A stretch of 17,402 bases of DNA from a virus (Duplodnaviria; Heunggongvirae; Uroviricota; Caudoviricetes): the IMG/VR virus record IMGVR_UViG_2617270979_000005, positions 1-17,402 of that record, one strand, 5' to 3'. The notes under the pieces are model-generated. The model was not told where the DNA came from. It ran no database searches and saw only the letters and a program-made list of their open reading frames with translations. A program made the position numbers and the translations under genes. Every line of letters begins with the position of its first letter. Within the stretch, counting starts at the first letter, position 1. Positions 7,702 through 17,402 of this stretch are shown in pieces.

Positions 7702-8388
7702 TCACTCCTTCTCTTCTTTTCCGTAGTGGAGTTGGCCAATTTTGATAAGAGGGCGTCCCTGAGATTTGCGGTGTAGATTGGTATCGCGCAGAGAATACAC
7801 ACAGCCACAATATTCCTGCTGATAGAATTTTTCGCGCTTGCTGATTTCAATCATACGGGACGAGCCGCCCTGCTTGCGCCAGTTATAATCCCAGTACACC
7901 ATACCCGGATAATGCGCAACAGCTCGCCGCCCACACTCGTTAACCTGCTGCATATTTTTCCAGCGTGAAATGCCCAGTGAACTGCTGATCACACTGAAAC
8001 CATTTTCAGCAGCGTACAACGCTGTCCGCTCAAAACGCATGTCAAAACACATGGTACAACGGATCCCCCTCTCAGGCTCCCATTCCATTCCTTTGGCACG
8101 TTCAAACCAGTTGTCGGTGTCGTAATCAGCATCGATAAACGGCACGCCGTGTTGTTCAGCAAAGCGAATATTTTCATCCTTACGAATTAAATACTCTTTC
8201 TGAGGATGAATGTTCGGGTTGTAGAAAAAGATGGTGTAGTCGATTCCCGAGGCCTGAAGCGCCTCCATCACTTCACCGGAACATGGAGCACAGCAAGAGT
8301 GCAGTAGTAGTTTGTTTGCCCCGTTTGGGAGTTCCAATTTAGGCCGTTTGAAATCAGCAATAGTCATAAATATTTTTATTGGGGTCAT
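7702..8388 (-). CDS. queH: QueH-like protein (DUF208, epoxyqueuosine reductase family)
   Basis: 228-aa ORF (ATG 8388; alternative ATG 8367; neither has a strong SD); family-defining motifs '[11 protein letters not shown]', '[10 protein letters not shown]' and 'YCGCVYS'. Family call from memory of DUF208. Confidence 0.75.
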
Positions 8389-8541
8389 GAAAATAGCACA
8401 GAGTGTAGCATCAGAGCAGGGCTATCGGGAATATATGTCTAAATCTGGTAATATCTGGTTTTGACGCAAAGCGGACAACCACGCTGGCTCTACCCTGCGC
8501 CATGAAAATGTCAATTCACATCTGAACTAATGCTCTTTAAT

Positions 8542-8937
8542 CTAGTAACGTCTAAAATACCTAACATTTCCTTGATAAAATGTCAGTACACGCTGCATAG
8601 CTTCGCTCTTCCGGCACTCGCGACAGATTATATTCAGGCGCCTGTCGTAGCGGCGTATTTCTCCGTCTGGTAACTTTCGAATCAGTGTCGGGTCAGCAGC
8701 CTTCTCCGGTGTCTTACGCCATACGCGATACGCCTGCTCTGATGGAAATACCCCGCAATCACAGAGCCAGACATCACCACTGGCCGCAAGCGCACCAGAT
8801 AAACGACGAATAGCGGTCTTACTGACACCCGTTTTATCTGCCAGTTGTCGAAAAGTTTCTCGTCCGCTCAGGCGCACGAATTCCACAATGCGCGCCTTCA
8901 CTTCTTCCCGCTCTTCTGGTGTAAATACTTTTGCCAT
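8542..8937 (-). CDS. Hypothetical nin-region protein (131 aa) with HTH-like segment and Cys cluster
   Basis: ATG at 8937 preceded by GGAGG (5-nt spacer); 'RQLADKTGVSKTAIRRL' HTH-like; CDC…CREC cysteines. The track start at 8952 is a TTG. Confidence 0.6.
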   Translation of the reverse strand: MAKVFTPEEREEVKARIVEFVRLSGRETFRQLADKTGVSKTAIRRLSGALAASGDVWLCDCGVFPSEQAYRVWRKTPEKAADPTLIRKLPDGEIRRYDRRLNIICRECRKSEAMQRVLTFYQGNVRYFRRY

Positions 8938-8952
8938 AAGCGCCTCCGGCAA

Positions 8953-9723
8953 TCACTTTTCCGACACAATACGACCGGATGAATCGACAATCTGTCGAAC
9001 AATATCCCGGTGCTTGTACAGCTCCCGCAGCGCGGCGCAGACTCGCTCCCACTTCTGAACCTGACCTTTTGCCCGGCGCAGCTCGCGGTTAGCCACATGC
9101 AGCGATGGTAAAATCAGACCATCCGGATGTTTTCTGGTGAACGACGGCTGTGACTGCACTGTGACCGCCACACTTTCAGTTTTTATTTCTTCCTGTGTTT
9201 CCGCTTCCCGGACAGGTAACGCAATACCTGCTGGCTGAGGAATGGCTTTACCATCCGTTTCCGCTACGGATGCAGCTTCCGGCTCTGCCGGTAAATCAGC
9301 GCCCGGTATGCAGTAACGAAATTTACCGTTCTGATTTACGCGTGCCAGGCGCCCCGTTGCTGTTACGACCGCCAACGTGGAAGCAACCTTGCGAATGCTA
9401 ACACCGAACTTATCCGCCAGTTCCTCACACGTTTTAGCCCCATCCTGACAGATAAACTCAATCATCATGTCCGCGGTAACTTTTTGTTCGACCTCCCCGG
9501 TCAGCATATCCTGTGCTTCAGATTTTACTGGCCGCTCTTCGGTTACCCGGGATTCACCTTCGCCAGCCAGAAACCAGGTGTGACCAGTTTTATCAACGAC
9601 GCCATTTCTTTTGAGTTCCCACAGCTCGTTGACAGCCTCTTCACGACTGATTCCAAGGCGAGCTGCCACCACATGTGAAGAGGCTTTTTTCAGTGCTTTC
9701 AGTGCGTCAAATACGGTTTCCAT
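8953..9723 (-). CDS. Hypothetical nin-region protein (256 aa), acidic, possibly DUF1627-like
   Basis: ATG at 9723 preceded by GGAGG (8-nt spacer); N-terminal winged-helix-like segment 'AARLGISREEAVNELWELKRNG'. DUF1627 assignment is a weak recollection. Confidence 0.55.
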   Translation of the reverse strand: METVFDALKALKKASSHVVAARLGISREEAVNELWELKRNGVVDKTGHTWFLAGEGESRVTEERPVKSEAQDMLTGEVEQKVTADMMIEFICQDGAKTCEELADKFGVSIRKVASTLAVVTATGRLARVNQNGKFRYCIPGADLPAEPEAASVAETDGKAIPQPAGIALPVREAETQEEIKTESVAVTVQSQPSFTRKHPDGLILPSLHVANRELRRAKGQVQKWERVCAALRELYKHRDIVRQIVDSSGRIVSEK

Positions 9724-9756
9724 TAATATTTCCTCCGACAAAATCGTTTCTCAGAT

Positions 9757-10419
9757 TCAAATAAAACCAGCTGCCTTCCGGCGTTCGTATTCCTGTTTCA
9801 GCCGTTCAATTGGCGTTGGCCCTTGCGGGTGTTTCGCCCCTTCCAGTTGTCGTCGCACTGGCGGAACACTCATCCCGTTACCAACATGCTTTGCCCATTT
9901 CGTCAGTTGCCGTTCCGCAAGTCGTTTTAACTCACCCTGCGTCATCTGGCGCTCAATCCCTCTGGTACGCATTTCGAGGCAGATGTGGTACAGCACAGGC
10001 TGTGGCCACGGGTATTTATCACTCCCGTCGTATCGCCAGGATTCATTGCGCCAGCGCCGGTACTCTTCCATCACTGCATCCACCGTAAGACCAAATGGAT
10101 TTGCCCCACTCTCCGAAATCAGTGCAACAAACTCAGCCAGGTCCGGGGGCCACGTTTCACCCGCCCGGCAGCGGTCCATGCACTGACGGCAGACCAGCCG
10201 GATTTGCTGTTCAGTCATCGCGCCAATCTGGGCAATCCAGAGCTTCGAAGGTGCGGCCCCGTTCTTCTGTGTCCAGCGGTTCGAATACACCTCCCCCATA
10301 AGCTCCCACAGCTTCCAGGCCGTTTCCGTTGCTGATAAATCCGTTGTCACGTTCCCACTGTTCGCGTGCTGCCCGGATTTCCTGAACTGCCCGTGATGCC
10401 GTGCCACCTGATGCTGCAT
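9757..10419 (-). CDS. Replication protein P-like (lambda P family helicase loader); start uncertain
   Basis: 220-aa ORF; C-terminal half aligns by eye with remembered lambda P (…YPWPQ…/…YPWKS…, …TEQQ…/…TMEQV…); ATG 10419 has an AGGGGG RBS but overlaps the O-like gene by 209 nt; alternative ATGs at 10299 and 10218. Confidence 0.65.
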   Translation of the reverse strand: MQHQVARHHGQFRKSGQHANSGNVTTDLSATETAWKLWELMGEVYSNRWTQKNGAAPSKLWIAQIGAMTEQQIRLVCRQCMDRCRAGETWPPDLAEFVALISESGANPFGLTVDAVMEEYRRWRNESWRYDGSDKYPWPQPVLYHICLEMRTRGIERQMTQGELKRLAERQLTKWAKHVGNGMSVPPVRRQLEGAKHPQGPTPIERLKQEYERRKAAGFI

Positions 10420-11227
10420 GGCTTACCCCCTTGCTGACTGGTTTTACCTGTGCCCTGACGTGCTGCACGTGGCGGGCAAATTTCTGCTCCCACTGAACCT
10501 GCGTGAAAACCTTCCCCTCCGCCATCCAGTAATCCCGGAATGCGGCAAGCTCTGCAGGTGTAAATTCCGGCTCAGGCAGAGCCATACCCCACACTGCTGC
10601 CCGTTGTCGAAAATCCGACGACAGCTGCCAGACAGTAGTCATCGAAAATTTCCCGATCGGTTCGCTCAGGCCGTCCAGGTATTCAGGTTCGGCTGTCTGC
10701 AACGGCGCACCATGCGACTCACCGGTTGGAGCACTCTCGCGCATGCGCGCGTTATGTGTGGGGTTTAATTCTGTATCTGTATCTTTATCTGTCGTGACTT
10801 GTCGTGACATGTGCGTGACATTTCGTGACGCGCCGTGACAATCGCCATTTTGTTCCCGCTTTCTTTCCCTCTCACGCTGCGCCCTCTTGCGCTCTGCCGG
10901 AGATTTTGCGGTTTGCGAAATATTGCCGTTGTCCTCTTTAAGCACCTGGCGTTTTTCCCATCCAGTGATTAAATCACCATCAAGTACCCGCCCCTGCATC
11001 GTCTGCAAAATTGAATCAATTACCTCTTCTGTCACGTCGAGCGCACTTGCCAAATCTTCTGTCGTGACATCAATGTGACCTCGCGTGACATTTCGTGACG
11101 CGCTCACCAGGAGGTGGATATACACTGCCATCACTGTTGCAATTGGCTGCCCTGACACCCTGGCAATTGTTCGCCACTTAGGGTCATTTGGCATGTCATG
11201 CCATAATCTGAGCCAGGCGTTAGCCAT
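10211..11227 (-). CDS. Replication initiator (O-like, iteron-binding replisome organiser)
   Basis: 338-aa ORF from ATG 11227 (GAGGTG RBS; track start 11233 is GTG); contains two arrays of CGTGAC iterons; sits immediately upstream of the P-like gene as in lambda O-P. Confidence 0.7.
   Translation of the reverse strand: MANAWLRLWHDMPNDPKWRTIARVSGQPIATVMAVYIHLLVSASRNVTRGHIDVTTEDLASALDVTEEVIDSILQTMQGRVLDGDLITGWEKRQVLKEDNGNISQTAKSPAERKRAQRERERKREQNGDCHGASRNVTHMSRQVTTDKDTDTELNPTHNARMRESAPTGESHGAPLQTAEPEYLDGLSEPIGKFSMTTVWQLSSDFRQRAAVWGMALPEPEFTPAELAAFRDYWMAEGKVFTQVQWEQKFARHVQHVRAQVKPVSKGVSHAASGGTASRAVQEIRAAREQWERDNGFISNGNGLEAVGAYGGGVFEPLDTEERGRTFEALDCPDWRDD
10791..10840. repeat. Iteron array A: five CGTGAC-core repeats at 10-11 bp spacing (candidate origin), inside the O-like gene
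   Basis: CGTGAC at 10793, 10803, 10814, 10824, 10834; preceded by tatct repeats (10770-10790). Confidence 0.65.
11061..11103. repeat. Iteron array B: four (C/T)GTGAC-core repeats at 10-11 bp spacing, near the 5' end of the O-like gene
   Basis: CGTGAC at 11063, 11084, 11094 and TGTGAC at 11074; the 21-mer GCGTGACATTTCGTGACGCGC (11083-11103) is an exact copy of 10813-10833. Confidence 0.6.
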
Positions 11228-11298
11228 ACTCACCTCTTCTGATACCGAATCTTTTTACTCACGAGTTGCCGGAAGCGATTCGATATGGCTATTGTCAG

Positions 11299-11724
11299 TC
11301 AATGTACTGCCACAGCATTTCCTGCCGGGCCACCACGGTTCATCTGATTGAAACCGGCGATTGCCACTGCGACAAAATCATCAGCGTCTCTCACCAGTCG
11401 CTCCCGCGTCTCCACCAGCTCCCGAAAATAAGCTGAACTGTGGCTGCGCATTCTGGCCACCAGCAAAGGTGGCATTGCCTTTTCGATCGCTGGTAACAAC
11501 GCCTGAATTTTTTCAACTGCATCAGGGGTGTCTTTCTCTACCCAGCGGAAAATTTTCTGGGTATTACGGGCCAGGGCTTCCGGATGGCTGTCGTCGTACA
11601 GTTCCGGGAACGTCATCCCCAGTTCGAAATAAGTCCGGGCTATTTCAGCTGCTGGAACTTTCTCACCGTCTGGATACGCCCAGGCATTCATTGCCATGCG
11701 GATGTGTTCATGCTTGATTTTCAT
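11299..11724 (-). CDS. YdaT-like protein (Rac-type, proposed cII-like regulator/toxin)
   Basis: 141-aa ORF; ATG 11724 with GGGGGTGA RBS; N-terminus 'MKIKHEHI' resembles remembered Rac YdaT; directly downstream of the Cro-like gene. Confidence 0.65.
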   Translation of the reverse strand: MKIKHEHIRMAMNAWAYPDGEKVPAAEIARTYFELGMTFPELYDDSHPEALARNTQKIFRWVEKDTPDAVEKIQALLPAIEKAMPPLLVARMRSHSSAYFRELVETRERLVRDADDFVAVAIAGFNQMNRGGPAGNAVAVH

Positions 11725-11983
11725 GAATCACCCCCGCCTCTGGTTGTGTGTTAGCCTGATACTCGACAGGTAAGCCGTCGGTTGGGTTGGGATAAGTACT
11801 GCCATCAATCTCGTGCGGAGTTACTATCCAGCCTGTTGCTTCGCACCAGCGTAAAATTTTTTTCCCCGTAAGTTTCGCCCGTCCGGTAATGACATGGCTT
11901 ACCATCCCTTGGGTTACCCCAACAATTTCAGCAAAATGCTTCTGAGTTATACCGGAATGATGCAAATATTCTCCAAGATTCAT
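11708..11983 (-). CDS. Cro-like HTH protein (YdaS family)
   Basis: 91-aa ORF; ATG 11983 with GAGGTGA RBS; HTH 'ITQKHFAEIVGVTQGMVSHVITG'; divergent from the repressor gene. Confidence 0.7.
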   Translation of the reverse strand: MNLGEYLHHSGITQKHFAEIVGVTQGMVSHVITGRAKLTGKKILRWCEATGWIVTPHEIDGSTYPNPTDGLPVEYQANTQPEAGVIHENQA

Positions 11984-12090
11984 TGTTCACCTCATGTGAT
12001 GTCATCACGATCATTAATAGCATTGTTATTTTTAAAAGTAAATAGCATCACTATTTCAAAGAGATTAATAATCTTATTAGAATTGAAGGT
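11984..12090. promoter_or_regulatory. Divergent immunity control region with operator palindromes
   Basis: Perfect 13-bp palindrome GTGATG-T-CATCAC (11996-12008); two imperfect copies of AATAGCA-N-TGCTATT (12016-12030, 12041-12055); AT-rich -10/-35-like hexamers on both strands (tentative). Confidence 0.55.
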
Positions 12091-12591
12091 ATGAAAAGAA
12101 AATCCCTGTCAGAGATCGACCTGCAAGCCGCCCAGAGACTGAAAGAAATCTGGACGGCGAAAAAAAATCAACTAGGGTTAACCCAAGAGCGTGCGGCAGA
12201 AATTCTGGGATTTTCGACACAGGGAGCTGTAAGCCATTATCTAAATGGTCAGACACCTTTAAATCTTGAGGCTGTTATCAAGTTCGCAGGGTTGCTGCAA
12301 GTTCCTCCCGAGTCAATCAGACCAGATATGGCCGAGTTGTTACAAATTGTAAGGATGTATCCCCAAGAATCTGGGGAGGACAATGTTGTCACTATATCTG
12401 CAGATATGGAACAATCGGAAAACGAACTTCCGTTTAATATAGACCCCATGGAGCGGGATTTGCTCCAGACGTTCAGGGCTTTCCCCAAAGAAGATAAAGA
12501 GAAAATGCTTAAGGAAATGAAGGAGAAAAAAGAATCAATTGAAGAAATCGTTGCGCGATGGCTAGCTGCGCAAAAGGGTCGTCGCGCCTAA
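12091..12591 (+). CDS. Prophage repressor, XRE-family HTH (RacR/DicA-like, no S24 peptidase domain)
   Basis: 166-aa ORF; HTH 'LGLTQERAAEILGFSTQGAVSHYLNG'; divergent from the Cro-like gene; 5 of 10 Arg codons are AGA/AGG and 2 Ile codons are ATA. Confidence 0.8.
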   Translation: MKRKSLSEIDLQAAQRLKEIWTAKKNQLGLTQERAAEILGFSTQGAVSHYLNGQTPLNLEAVIKFAGLLQVPPESIRPDMAELLQIVRMYPQESGEDNVVTISADMEQSENELPFNIDPMERDLLQTFRAFPKEDKEKMLKEMKEKKESIEEIVARWLAAQKGRRA

Positions 12592-12608
12592 TCTGAGGAG
12601 GTAAAAAC

Positions 12609-12800
12609 ATGAGTACAGCCCTTTCCCCGATAATTTCTGAATTTGAAACAGTCGAACAAGAAAACAGCTATAACGAATGGTTGCGAACCAAAGTGGCAGC
12701 AAGCCTCTCAGATCCCCGTCCTGCAATTCCACATGACGAAGTAATGGCTGAAATGGAAAACCTTATTGCTCAATTAGCTGCAACGAACAGGAGTGAGTAA
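12609..12800 (+). CDS. Type II antitoxin (ParD/RHH-like) paired with the downstream ParE toxin
   Basis: 63-aa ORF; GAGGAGG RBS at 12594-12600; stop overlaps the toxin start (TAATG); family assignment by partner and size only. Confidence 0.65.
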   Translation: MSTALSPIISEFETVEQENSYNEWLRTKVAASLSDPRPAIPHDEVMAEMENLIAQLAATNRSE

Positions 12801-13090
12801 TGCTGCCCATTTTATGGCTACCTTCTGCACGTGATGATTTACGTCAGATCGTAGCCTATATTGCTAAGGAAAACCCTCCCGCTGCACGTAGACTAAAAAT
12901 ACGCATTGAAACATCAGTTTTGTCACTTACTGAACACCCTTATCTGTACCCACCGAGCGAAAGAGTTCCAAGTCTTCGTGAGATAGTGACTCATCCTAAC
13001 TACATAATACTTTACCGAGTAACAGCATCTAACATCGAGATCGTAAATGTAGTTCACTCACGAAGACAGTATCCAAACAAAACCTGTTAA
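12800..13090 (+). CDS. ParE/RelE-superfamily toxin
   Basis: 96-aa ORF; ParE-like pattern 'LWLPSARDDLRQIVAYIAKENPPAARRL … ILYRV … IEIVNVVHSRRQ'; translationally coupled to the antitoxin. Confidence 0.8.
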   Translation: MLPILWLPSARDDLRQIVAYIAKENPPAARRLKIRIETSVLSLTEHPYLYPPSERVPSLREIVTHPNYIILYRVTASNIEIVNVVHSRRQYPNKTC

Positions 13091-13103
13091 TCCTTCCTGT
13101 CAA

Positions 13104-13128
13104 CAACCACCTTCGGGTGGTTTTTTTC
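13104..13128 (+). terminator. Rho-independent terminator after the toxin gene
   Basis: AACCACC-TTCG-GGTGGTT hairpin followed by TTTTTTT (13121-13127). Confidence 0.7.
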
Positions 13129-13138
13129 TTGCCACGAT

Positions 13139-13153
13139 AATAGCACTGCTATT
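13139..13153. promoter_or_regulatory. Operator: perfect palindrome AATAGCA-C-TGCTATT upstream of the ydfA-dicB operon
   Basis: Perfect 7-1-7 inverted repeat; same motif as the two imperfect copies in the immunity control region. Confidence 0.55.
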
Positions 13154-13359
13154 TACATAATTAAATAGTAGTGGTATTGTTCATTCATCAACCCACCCCG
13201 CCCCACAGAACGCCAGGCAATACTTCGAGTTACCCGGCAGTGGTCAGGGGTTAAGTAGCCAGCCCGAGGCGTATGAACATGACGGCGGGAACACTTTATA
13301 TAACAGCGCAGCAGTTTTTTAGTTCCGCTACCCCGGCGTTAAGGGGAAATGAGGTCAGC

Positions 13360-13515
13360 ATGGATACTATCGATCTTGGCAACAATGAATCTCTGGTGTA
13401 CGGCGTGTTTCCCAACCAGGACGGCACATTCACCGCGATGACGTATACCAAAAGCAAAACGTTTAAAACCGAAAATGGTGCCCGTCGCTGGCTGGAAAGA
13501 AACTCAGGTGAGTGA
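13360..13515 (+). CDS. ydfA: YdfA/YdaF-like small protein (51 aa)
   Basis: ATG 13360 preceded by AAGGGGAAATGAGG; size and position match the first gene of the Qin dicB operon (from memory). Confidence 0.65.
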   Translation: MDTIDLGNNESLVYGVFPNQDGTFTAMTYTKSKTFKTENGARRWLERNSGE

Positions 13516-13516
13516 T

Positions 13517-13645
13517 ATGGATTTCGACACAATCATGGAAAAGGCTTACGAAGAATACTTCGAAGGCCTTGCCGAAGGCGAAGAAGCTCTCAGCTTCAGT
13601 GAGTTTAAACAGGCGCTTTCCAGCTCGGCAAAATCTAACGGCTGA
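13517..13645 (+). CDS. ydfB: YdfB-like small protein (42 aa), absent from the ORF track
   Basis: Hand-translated: ATG 13517 (AGGTGA RBS) to TGA 13643-13645 gives MDFDTIMEKAYEEYFEGLAEGEEALSFSEFKQALSSSAKSNG; size and position match ydfB. Confidence 0.6.
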   Translation: MDFDTIMEKAYEEYFEGLAEGEEALSFSEFKQALSSSAKSNG

Positions 13646-13674
13646 TAAGCGAAACAGCACCGCGAGGAATCAGT

Positions 13675-13893
13675 ATGCAGAAACGAGAACCCGTCATCAT
13701 CGCGCCAGACTATACCGATGATGAACTTTATGAGTGGATGCACCAGAAAATTAATGCAGCGCAGGATCTGAAATGGGCCAATGAAGCCAGGGCTAAGCAG
13801 GCTGAAAATCTGTCCGCTCTGGAGCAGGATATCACTAATCTGGAAAAAGCAGCGGCATTAAGCATTGCCAGAATGATTACATACCCGCGTTAA
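13675..13893 (+). CDS. ydfC: YdfC-like protein (72 aa)
   Basis: ATG 13675 with GAGGAA RBS; size and position match ydfC. Confidence 0.65.
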   Translation: MQKREPVIIAPDYTDDELYEWMHQKINAAQDLKWANEARAKQAENLSALEQDITNLEKAAALSIARMITYPR

Positions 13894-13915
13894 TAGCTAA
13901 CCAACGAGGCTAATA

Positions 13916-14290
13916 ATGGAATTTAAAGATTTACCAATGCAATTCCAGGAAATGGCAGCGAATATAGTTCGTTCCCAACTGGCGACTCTTGACCTGAGTA
14001 CCGTAGAAAAAGAAACCATCGACAATATATCCGGTAACGTACGCCGAGCCTTTATCGGGCTGTACGAAGAGAAGCAGCTCTCTGATAACCAGGATTTACA
14101 TGAAAAATACTTTCTGGAATTAATGGACATCATTAATAAAGGATTTGGCTTGTTAATGAAAAAGAAAGGGATTCGAATAGCTCCCCTTGAAAATCATTTT
14201 ACAGCAAGCAGTATTAATTCCTGTGATTTAAAGCATCACACATCCGATGGGAAAGTTGAATCAAACAACAAAATATCGATTAATCATTAA
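13916..14290 (+). CDS. Hypothetical protein (124 aa), AT-rich insertion between ydfC and DicF
   Basis: ATG 13916 with GAGG RBS (6-nt spacer); 4 of 11 Ile codons are ATA; no recognisable family. Confidence 0.6.
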   Translation: MEFKDLPMQFQEMAANIVRSQLATLDLSTVEKETIDNISGNVRRAFIGLYEEKQLSDNQDLHEKYFLELMDIINKGFGLLMKKKGIRIAPLENHFTASSINSCDLKHHTSDGKVESNNKISINH

Positions 14291-14596
14291 TTTATTCACA
14301 GGTGAGGTAGAGTGCGTGCGCCGGACACGGATAAGAATCCGGCACTGACAGTTTACTGAAAAGGATATATCCCTGAAAAGTCAGGGCATAACACGAAAGC
14401 GCCCGGAGAAGTTAGTCTCTCTGTATAGGTCGTCGTTAAATTTAATTCGATCGTGCGCTTCCGGTTGTGGCAATCCGCGAAATGGCGCGGCGGTAAGTAT
14501 GGCGGGGTTATTCCTTCCCCCGCTGAGGACACCGGGTTGTCAGGTTGACCATACGCTTAAGTGACAACCCCGCTGGCAACGCCCTCTGTTATCAAT

Positions 14597-14649
14597 TTTC
14601 TGGTGACGTTTGGCGGTATCAGTTTTACTCCGTGACTGCTCTGCCGCCC
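14597..14649 (+). ncRNA. dicF: DicF small regulatory RNA
   Basis: 53-nt stretch TTTCTGGTGACGTTTGGCGGTATCAGTTTTACTCCGTGACTGCTCTGCCGCCC followed by TTTTT matches the remembered DicF sequence; located between ydfC-like and dicB as in Qin. Confidence 0.85.
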
Positions 14650-14823
14650 TTTTTAAAGTGAATTTTGTGATGTGGTGAATGCGGCTGAGCGCACGCGGAA
14701 CAGTTAAAACCAAAAACAGTGTTATGGGTGGATTCTCTGTATCCGGCGTTAATTGTTAACTGGTTAACGTCACCTGGAGGCACCAGGCACCGCATCACAA
14801 AATTCATTGTTGAGGACGCGATA

Positions 14824-15012
14824 ATGGAAACGTTATTACCAAACGTTAATACGTCTGAAGGTTGTTTTGATATTGGTGTTCTGCTCAGTAACCGGGAGTT
14901 TACGGAAGATGCCATTAAGATGAGAAAATATGAACCTTATCTTCTCAATGATAATTCCATACTTTCCAGAATTGCCCTTCTTGAACTTGGTATTATCGGA
15001 GAACAGCAGTGA
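14824..15012 (+). CDS. dicB: DicB cell-division inhibitor homolog
   Basis: 62-aa ORF 'METLLPNVNTSEGCFDIGV…'; N-terminus matches remembered DicB (MKTLLPNVNTSEGCFEIGV…), C-terminus diverges; GAGGA RBS. Confidence 0.8.
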   Translation: METLLPNVNTSEGCFDIGVLLSNREFTEDAIKMRKYEPYLLNDNSILSRIALLELGIIGEQQ

Positions 15013-15197
15013 CTTCAGCATTTGCACTGGTGATGACCGTTTTTCTTATAACGGGTGAGCCACAAAATGTGATTACCGGAATTTATGACAGTAAGTCATC
15101 CTGCATTCAGGTAAGGGACGAACAAAAAATCCCCGGTGAATGCCTCCCGTTAAAAAAAGTATCGCTGAACCTGAATAACGAAATACCGGCTGGATAA
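15009..15197 (+). CDS. ydfD: YdfD-like small protein
   Basis: 62-aa ORF with GTG start overlapping the dicB stop; 'MTSAFALVMTVFLITGEPQNV…'; position matches ydfD. Confidence 0.7.
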   Translation: MTSAFALVMTVFLITGEPQNVITGIYDSKSSCIQVRDEQKIPGECLPLKKVSLNLNNEIPAG

Positions 15198-15291
15198 CCC
15201 GCCAGCCATATTAACGCCATACCAACGGATTAAAAATGCCACAATGGCAGGGATTCGTTCACCCTGAAATCTGTAATGAGGTTAAAACAAA

Positions 15292-17402
15292 ATGAGTAAA
15301 GTCTTTATTTGCGCCGCCATTCCGGACGAACAGGCAATAAAGGAAGAAGGTGCGTCGCTGTAGCCACTGCCATTGAAGCCGGTGATGAACGTCGCGCCCG
15401 CGCAAAATTTCACTGGCAATTCCTGGAACATTATCCGGCTGCTCAGGACTGCGCTTATAAATTTCTTGTCTGCGAGGATAAACCCGGTATACCCCGCCCT
15501 GCCCTCGATTCCTGGGATGCTGAATATATGCAGGAAAACCGCTGGGATGAGGAGTCTGCTTCCTTTGTCCCGGTTGAGACTGAATCAGATCCGATGAACG
15601 TCACTTTTGACAAGCTGGCCCCTGAAGTACAGAACGCTGTCATGGTTAAGTTCGACACATGTGAAAACATCACCGTTGATATGGTGATTAGCGCACAGGA
15701 ATTGTTGCAGGAAGACATGGCAACATTCGACGGCCATATCGTTGAAGCGTTGATGAAAATGCCAGAAGTTAACGCTATGTATCCGGAGCTTAAGCTGCAT
15801 GCCATCGGGTGGGTTAAGCATAAATGTAAGCCTGGTGCCAAATGGCCCGAAATTCAGGCAGAGATGCGCATCTGGAAAAAACGTCGCGAAGGTGAACGCA
15901 AGGAAACCGGAAAATACACGTCTGTTGTTGATCTCGCCCGCGCCAGAGCCAATCAACAGAACACTGAAAATTCAACAGGAAAAATCAGCCCGGTCATTGC
16001 TGCCATTCATCGCGAATACAAGCAGACATGGAAAACACTGGATGACGAACTGGCCTACGCTCTCTGGCCTGGTGATGTGGATGCCGGAAACATTGACGGC
16101 AGCATCCATCGCTGGGCAAAAAATGAAGTTATCGACAACGACCGCGAAGACTGGAAGCGTATCTCGGCATCAATGCGCAAACAGCCTGATGCCCTTCGCT
16201 ACGACCGCCAGACTATTTTTGGCCTTGTCCGTGAACGTCCGATCGACATTCACAAAGACCCTGTGGCACTGAACAAATACATTACTGAATACCTGACTAC
16301 AAAGGGCGTGTTTGAAGATGAAGGAAGAAATCAGAGCGCAACTGATACTCTCTCGTCGCCAGTACCAGAAACTGATGCAGTGGAAACGGCAATTCCGGAC
16401 AACGAAAAAACCGAATGCAAAGTGGAAGTCGAACCATCTGTAGAGCGTGAGGGGCCGTTCTACTTCCTCTTCACCGACAAGGATGGCGAAAAATACGGTC
16501 GCGCAAACAAACTTTCTGGTCTGGAAAAAGCACTGGCCTTGGGAGCTACGGAAATCACAAAAGAGGAATACTTCGCACGTAAAAACGGCACGTACTCAGG
16601 TTCACAACAAAATACTGGTGCATCTGACACGACCGCACAACCAGAGCCGGTAAAAGTTACAGCTGACGAAGTAAACAAAATTATGCAGGCAGCCAATATC
16701 AGCCAGCCTGACGCCGATAAGTTGCTTGCTGCCTCTCGCGGAGAATTTGTTGCAGGGATTAGCGACCAGAATGATCCGAAATGGGTTAAGGGGATCCAGA
16801 CCCGCGATTCTGTAAACCAGAACCAGCATGAATCGGAACGGAACTACCAAAAAGCGGAACAAAACAGCCCAAATGCGTTACAAAACGAGCCAGAAACGAA
16901 ACAGCCTGAACCAGTGGCGCAACAGGAAGTGGAAAAAGTCTGCACCGCCTGCGGTCAAAGCGGTGGCGGCAACTGCCCTGATTGTGGCGCGGTGATGGGT
17001 GACGCAACATACCAGGAAACATTCGATGAAGAGAATCAGGTTGAAGTTCAGGAAAATGATCCGAAGGAAATGGAAGGCGCTGAACATCCACACAAGGAGA
17101 ATGCTGGTAGCGCTCAGGATCACGCCAGCGATAGTGAAACTGGCGAGACGGCAGATCCCTTAATTACGATGAACGGTCATCACGTTATCACATCCACCAG
17201 CAGGACGTGTGACCATCTAATGATCGACCTTGAAACCATGGGAAAAAATCCTGATGCCCCGATTATCTCAATAGGTGCAATATTTTTCGATCCGCAAACC
17301 GGAGATATGGGACCGGAATTTAGTAAGACTATCGATCTGGAAACTGCTGGCGGGGTCATTGATCGGGACACCATTAAATGGTGGCTTAAGCAATCACGCG
17401 AA
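15292..17402 (+). pseudogene. RecE/exonuclease VIII-like gene (YdfE-like N-terminus), 3'-truncated by the window, with an apparent frameshift near codon 20
   Basis: ATG 15292 (GAGG RBS) opens a 23-codon frame ending at TAG 15361-15363; the adjacent frame (positions divisible by 3) is open from 15300 to the window end (hand-translated, about 700 codons, no stop). That frame contains a CxxC-x9-CxxC zinc ribbon (16941-16985) and ends in a DnaQ-like motif 'MIDLETMGKNPDAPIISIGAIFFD'. A single-base indel in 15300-15360 would fuse the frames. Confidence 0.6.

Follow-up and report, generated by a model that had tools for sequence, protein, structure and literature searches.

A 124-residue protein gene in a variable slot between ydfC and DicF of a Qin-like dicBF operon

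The dicBF operon and its counterpart in the window

Work on the dicBF operon, the textbook case of an operon in a cryptic prophage that influences host division, metabolism and phage resistance, has been confined almost entirely to Escherichia coli K-12. DicB, like the Kil proteins of lambda and Rac, is a small early-operon protein that binds host division proteins. In K-12, dicBp, situated upstream of ydfA, transcribes the whole operon as a single transcript from which an internal promoter is absent, and the DicF precursor is known to be processed by RNase III as well as RNase E (10.1101/2023.04.14.536235).

The locus described here was compared with these systems. An open reading frame (ORF) of 124 codons lies between ydfC and DicF in the window, which denotes the whole 17,402-nt stretch of prophage DNA that was analysed (IMG/VR record IMGVR_UViG_2617270979_000005, positions 1 to 17,402). 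Its product has operon, strand, a similar size class and uncharacterised status in common with YdfA, YdfB and YdfC of the K-12 dicBF operon, but it displays no sequence similarity to them and most copies of the ORF occur without ydfB or ydfC. Like DicB and Kil, the protein is small and predicted to be soluble, and its gene is located in the early-left region adjoining recE/exo genes, where it is presumably under repressor control; unlike them, it yielded no match to PF05358 or PF06301 at E <= 1. As in lambdoid morons and accessory slots (e.g. sieB), the ORF is AT-rich and variably present between collinear prophages with conserved flanks. However, in contrast to morons, it is in operon orientation and a consensus scan, which is a weak tool, detected no promoter or terminator of its own, and in contrast to SieB, its product has neither a PF14163 match nor a membrane segment.

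The window is a lambdoid prophage carrying Q, RusA, a type II restriction-modification pair, replication genes, YdaS/YdaT, a repressor, a RelE-family toxin-antitoxin pair, the dicBF operon and a RecE-like exonuclease. RefSeq annotation was taken from the near-identical JKHS016 locus (99.8% identity to the window), where the genes at approximately 5507-7523 (minus strand) correspond to ones annotated as encoding an NgoMIV-family type II restriction endonuclease and a DNA cytosine methyltransferase; a gene for QueH (epoxyqueuosine reductase) is found after these at approximately 7702-8388. An Rfam match to the sok antitoxin RNA at 7454-7634 (minus strand), the score of which (61 bits) is barely over the gathering score of 59, would imply a hok/sok-type module within the prophage. 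Two tRNA genes on the minus strand (879-955 and 1056-1131) encode a tRNA-Arg(UCU) and a CAU-anticodon tRNA, the latter assigned to Met by ARAGORN, which we take to resemble the ileX/ileZ-type tRNA-Ile2 that reads AUA. A two-gene module encoding a 63-aa protein and a 96-aa RelE/ParE-family toxin (12609-13090, plus strand) is positioned between the repressor gene and the presumed dicBF promoter, and K-12 Qin is without this module at the corresponding place.

A terminator-like hairpin (13105-13122) after relE precedes a promoter-like site at 13144..13180 on the plus strand (TTTACA-17-TATTGT with TG), which was identified by consensus scan only. The hexamers of this site, upstream of ydfA, are overlapped by a palindrome with 12-bp arms (CACTGCTATTTACATAATTAAATAGTAGTG) at 13144-13173 (plus strand). 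Judged from the sequence, the site probably constitutes the operon promoter and operator, equivalent to dicBp, with the palindrome as the likely operator for a DicA-like repressor. The operon itself was delineated on the plus strand as ydfA (DUF1391), its first cistron, at 13360..13515 (Pfam PF07151, E 5.8e-28; RefSeq annotation of the JKHS016 locus), ydfB at 13517..13645 (RefSeq annotation of the JKHS016 locus; PHROG 2061), ydfC at 13675..13893 (RefSeq annotation; PHROG 1744, E 1e-39), the DicF sRNA at 14598..14649 (Rfam RF00039, 76.7 bits, E 9.8e-16), dicB at 14824..15012 (Pfam PF05358, E 3.7e-38) and a ydfD-like DUF1482 gene at 15009..15197 (Pfam PF07358, E 2.8e-15).

The ORF begins with ATG and encompasses 13916..14290 on the plus strand, where the ORF list, the PHROG match and a RefSeq coding sequence (WP_032178987.1, "hypothetical protein") coincide, and, counted from ydfA, it is the fourth cistron of the operon. 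It starts 22 nt after the end of ydfC and is separated by 307 nt from DicF. The original prediction was based on the letters of the DNA and a list of ORFs; it placed the ORF between the same neighbours and credited it with a good ribosome-binding site and with ATA at 4 of its 11 Ile codons, and these particulars are borne out. A Shine-Dalgarno GAGG was read directly from the sequence at 13906-13909 (plus strand), 6 nt 5' of the ATG, and the codon count gave ATA 4, ATT 4 and ATC 3. AGA and AGG codons are absent from the ORF, yet 4/11 of its Ile codons are ATA. Its GC content of 37.3% compares with 48.9% for the window and 47-48% for ydfA, ydfB and ydfC, and declines from 44.8% in the N-terminal half (first 165 nt) to 31.4% in the C-terminal half. 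The base composition of the ORF is thus distinct from that of its neighbours, as is looked for in a moron. As is looked for in a cistron of the dicBF operon, the ORF is on the same strand as ydfA to dicB and lies between them with no separating terminator or promoter found: by consensus scan, a weak tool, the plus strand between 13893 and 14598 contained no terminator and promoter matches at chance level only. Since the promoter scan is weak, an internal promoter for the ORF may nevertheless exist.

Coding evidence and protein architecture

A scan of IMG/VR identified 80 loci (prophage contigs) with the full ORF, representing 30 distinct DNA alleles. The original prediction depended on conservation of the coding frame in relatives, and the frame is kept: all 30 alleles are exactly 375 nt long with zero stop codons or indels, their variable sites are distributed over codon positions 1, 2 and 3 as 19, 15 and 41, and the Nei-Gojobori estimate of pooled dN/dS is 0.17 for the annotated frame, as opposed to 1.7 and 2.1 when the remaining two forward frames are read. 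By segment, dN/dS was 0.17 for the N-terminal, 0.17 for the middle and 0.14 for the tail portion. When the 404-nt AT-rich segment was shuffled 5000 times, an ORF of this length was obtained in 0.02% of the shuffles. The ORF is a true gene under purifying selection as a protein. An antisense ORF at 13897-14133, which shares wobble positions with the sense frame, was rejected as a real gene, being interrupted by a stop codon in 20 of 25 alleles.

The encoded protein has a mass of 14.2 kDa, a pI of 5.9 and no hydrophobic segment, the maximum Kyte-Doolittle hydropathy over 19 residues being 0.53. Its N-terminal module (N-module; residues 1-55, 13916..14080, plus strand) is acidic (pI 4.65), is predicted to form two helices and bears the motif MEFKDLPxxIQxIAA...RNVRxAFxGLY, while the type-specific C-terminal part (14081..14287, plus strand) would add a third helix at residues 59-83, followed by a polar tail (residues 91-124) for which disorder is predicted. 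An AlphaFold2 model calculated with a 60-sequence alignment is of low confidence (pLDDT 58.9) and places helices at residues 8-23, 32-53 and 59-83, with the tail disordered from residue 91. As modelled, the product is soluble and mostly helical, combining a two-helix N-module with a type-specific C-terminal helix and a predicted-disordered tail. A lambda N-type antiterminator was considered and rejected, as the N-terminus is acidic rather than arginine-rich and the gene is the fourth cistron, not the first.

Contrary to the original description of the ORF as unassigned, the HMM of PHROG 6937 matches it end to end (residues 1-124 on 1-124 of 124, E 9.7e-79), although no functional family is recognisable, in agreement with that description. 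PHROGs 1363, 2151, 9419 and 33007 share only the N-terminal residues (1-52 to 1-63); PHROG 2151, labelled 'Ybl81', is in this way a sister of PHROG 6937 through the N-module. As PHROG 6937 and its sisters are without known function, membership names the gene and does not explain it. When 1.84 billion representatives were searched exhaustively with an HMMER profile, 47 matches were obtained, nearly all through residues 1-50 to 1-65; distant relatives of the C-terminal part did not emerge, this part being restricted to the 124-aa type and its truncated 106- and 109-aa forms. Homologues of the N-module at 35-50% identity keep the motif (alignment A2), and stand-alone N-module proteins of 50-65 aa occur in Salmonella, Raoultella, Klebsiella, Providencia and Citrobacter. 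In early regions without DicF, the N-module gene adjoins SieB and Kil in a Raoultella prophage and is near RecE in a Salmonella prophage, and in Stx2 Oslovirus phages, which also have no DicF, it is located between the genes for a DUF2303 protein and PAPS reductase. Among the species-representative genomes of GTDB, the N-module profile recovered only 2 weak loci. The conserved motif, the stand-alone forms and the DicF-free settings together indicate a real protein domain and not a mere recombination arm, and the module, which occurs in prophages lacking DicF, has no obligate link to it. In one 149-aa protein (P0160), a YdfC-like N-terminal part is fused to an N-module (residues 91-141), which suggests that the gene order of ydfC followed by an N-module gene may be old and has occasionally given rise to fusion.

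Searches for function were negative throughout their respective ranges. No credible Pfam, NCBIfam or PADLOC domain was identified in the ORF product, at least nine paralogues or the antisense partners; PADLOC-DB gave 0 families at E <= 0.1 for the ORF product and five variant or partner proteins; and neither the single sequence nor the family profile retrieved a PDB sequence below E 0.07. Structure prediction, which had been suggested as a means of assigning function, was uninformative: Foldseek comparison of the low-confidence model with the PDB produced generic helical bundles only, with no match at E <= 0.001 and no fold from which a function could be read; fold matches for the 212-aa paralogue were likewise generic only. 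Literature searches by accession, PHROG identifier, 'Ybl81' and dicBF terms retrieved no paper mentioning the protein.

The slot upstream of the DicF leader

The window aligns collinearly with the Qin prophage of K-12 MG1655 as far as 13913 (97.8% identity), and collinearity returns at 14297 (92%). Between these points 383 nt of the window correspond to 22 nt in K-12, which amounts to a gene-sized indel that reaches from the ribosome-binding site to a point 6 nt beyond the stop codon. The proposal that the order ydfA-ydfB-ydfC-DicF-dicB is that of K-12 Qin with the ORF as an extra therefore agrees with the alignment, K-12 being without exactly this gene. From 14297 to 14597 (plus strand) extends the untranslated leader of the DicF precursor, recognised by its 92% identity to K-12. 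This is the stretch that had been described as GC-rich, structured and following upon the ORF: both hairpins are present, but at 51.5% GC it appears GC-rich only beside the AT-rich ORF, and it is the normal DicF precursor leader rather than a feature of the ORF. Across 42 DicF loci the last approximately 215 nt of the leader are nearly invariant and its hairpins show 0 compensatory pairs out of 73, so that covariation neither supports nor refutes the hairpin fold. The approximately 85 nt before these (14297-14380), at the start of the leader, differ between DicF loci, for which at least three unrelated versions of the sequence are seen.

Among 5426 complete E. coli genomes, the ORF was present at >=80% of its length in 723, and its first 113-180 nt in 1357. 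At every one of the 80 IMG/VR loci it follows ydfC at a distance of 22 nt or else comes straight after ydfA, the latter arrangement, without ydfB or ydfC, accounting for approximately 70% of copies, and it is always 305-307 nt upstream of DicF. Occupancy was assessed in a sample of 120 DicF-bearing contigs chosen regardless of the ORF, 101 of which encompassed at least 1800 nt upstream of DicF. An N-module gene immediately preceded the leader in 40 of these 101 loci and was lacking in the other 61. At least eight C-terminal types were distinguished among the 40 genes, the products of which comprise 124 aa (10 loci), 133 aa (9 loci), 121 aa (6 loci), 112 aa (4 loci), 212 aa (3 loci), 135 aa (2 loci), 106 aa (2 loci) and singleton sizes (4 loci). 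When the window was compared with four variants, homology stopped at recombination breakpoints nested inside the ORF (14028, 14075, 14194 or 14232); for three variants it resumed at 14297, for the fourth at 14315. The slot is polymorphic: the ORF is one of its alleles, and in K-12 it stands empty. The comparison of presence and absence across related prophages that the original prediction called for thus upholds a variable site, but not the direction implied by the word 'inserted': the empty site of the K-12 type retains 26 nt (GGTTRGTAATTAAGGAGTTCTCCACG) that recur at the right-hand end of the 106- and 135-aa cassettes, so that insertion is not established and K-12 may instead derive from a deletion.

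In most other variants of the slot, the N-module gene is accompanied by a small gene that converges on it and encodes approximately 64-100 aa (for example L003 2114-2551 and L004 2127-2360, both on the minus strand, and the DicF loci L192, L179 and L106). This convergent gene is preceded by an AGGAGG ribosome-binding site of its own, and its 3' end overlaps the sense gene by 12-41 nt. Convergent genes of at least five mutually unrelated sequence types were observed, and the two that were scanned had no Pfam or PADLOC match. Some RefSeq calls of convergent genes (145 aa) seem over-extended into the conserved DicF leader. The 124-aa type has no convergent gene.

Proposed role and competing explanations

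In the reading that we favour, to which a probability of roughly 0.6 is assigned, the ORF is a genuine optional cistron of the dicBF operon in the early-left, repressor-controlled region of a Qin/Rac-like lambdoid prophage, and its product is made on derepression and binds a host or rival-phage protein. Lifting of the DicA-like repressor would allow the protein to be made, and only then, alongside DicF and DicB. By analogy with DicB and Kil, its binding to a host or rival-phage protein might serve host takeover, exclusion or anti-defence, in which case the N-module could provide the common functional core and the C-terminal part could tune specificity. This role is proposed because of the position of the gene, the size and the helical, soluble nature of its predicted product, and the analogy with DicB and Kil.

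Four other readings were weighed and are less likely than that of an early-operon accessory protein. The ORF could be a moron expressed in the lysogen, that is, a horizontally acquired superinfection-exclusion or defence gene with its own promoter and independent of the early operon. Its GC content (37% vs 49% in the window, and 31% in the C-terminal half), its presence/absence polymorphism, the small convergent genes that occupy the same slot in other variants and the antisense SieB gene adjoining the N-module gene in Raoultella all point in this direction. However, the ORF is on the operon strand 22 nt after ydfC, the consensus scan, weak as it is, found no promoter or terminator of its own beyond chance, and its product has neither a PADLOC match nor a membrane segment such as that of SieB-type exclusion proteins, which renders this reading rather unlikely. 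An improbable sub-case of the favoured reading is a growth or cell-division inhibitor acting alongside DicF, DicB and YdfD. Judging by its operon position, the ORF would be co-transcribed with the division inhibitors DicF and DicB, it occupies a slot where other prophages carry kil, and its product is modelled as a small soluble helical protein, but similarity to the DicB or Kil families was not found, a gene of this type is absent from 61 of the 101 sampled DicF loci, and the toxicity of the K-12 operon is ascribed to DicF and DicB alone (10.1101/2023.04.14.536235).

A role in cis, in which the DicF precursor would have its stability, processing or Rho termination tuned by translation of the ORF or by its RNA, the protein being secondary, would be in keeping with the stop codon lying a constant 305-307 nt upstream of DicF and the ORF being immediately 5' of a conserved leader. 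It is made very improbable by selection on the amino-acid sequence (dN/dS 0.17), by N-module genes in prophages that have no DicF, by the production of DicF in K-12 without the ORF (10.1101/2023.04.14.536235) and by an untranslated leader that is equally long with or without the ORF; pairing of DicF with the start region of the ORF was moreover no better than with shuffled sequence. The absence of a recognisable domain, and of the gene itself from K-12 and those same 61 loci, is what a chance or decaying functionless ORF would entail, but 30 intact alleles under the constraint described above, the rarity of such a length among shuffles (0.02%) and the presence of the ORF in 723 of 5426 complete E. 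coli genomes leave this reading scarcely credible.

Beyond the favoured reading of an optional dicBF cistron, a broader interpretation of the slot is advanced tentatively and is itself considered unlikely. The site 5' of the DicF leader could be an undescribed diversifying hotspot, in which a constant 55-aa N-module is joined to swappable C-terminal modules, usually with a convergent partner. The family would then form a modular effector repertoire serving anti-defence, exclusion or host takeover, and derepression would release it along with DicF and DicB; within it, the 124-aa protein would be the member that has no partner.

The ORF is an already catalogued and fairly ordinary accessory gene of a variable slot in a well-known prophage operon, and as such its inclusion in an expression screen would be reasonable without being urgent. 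The model strain for dicBF, K-12, displays only the empty state of this slot, while approximately 40% of the sampled DicF loci are filled by members of an uncharacterised modular family. Should the slot proteins affect the host or infecting phages, some of this operon's biology in natural and pathogenic E. coli would have been overlooked.
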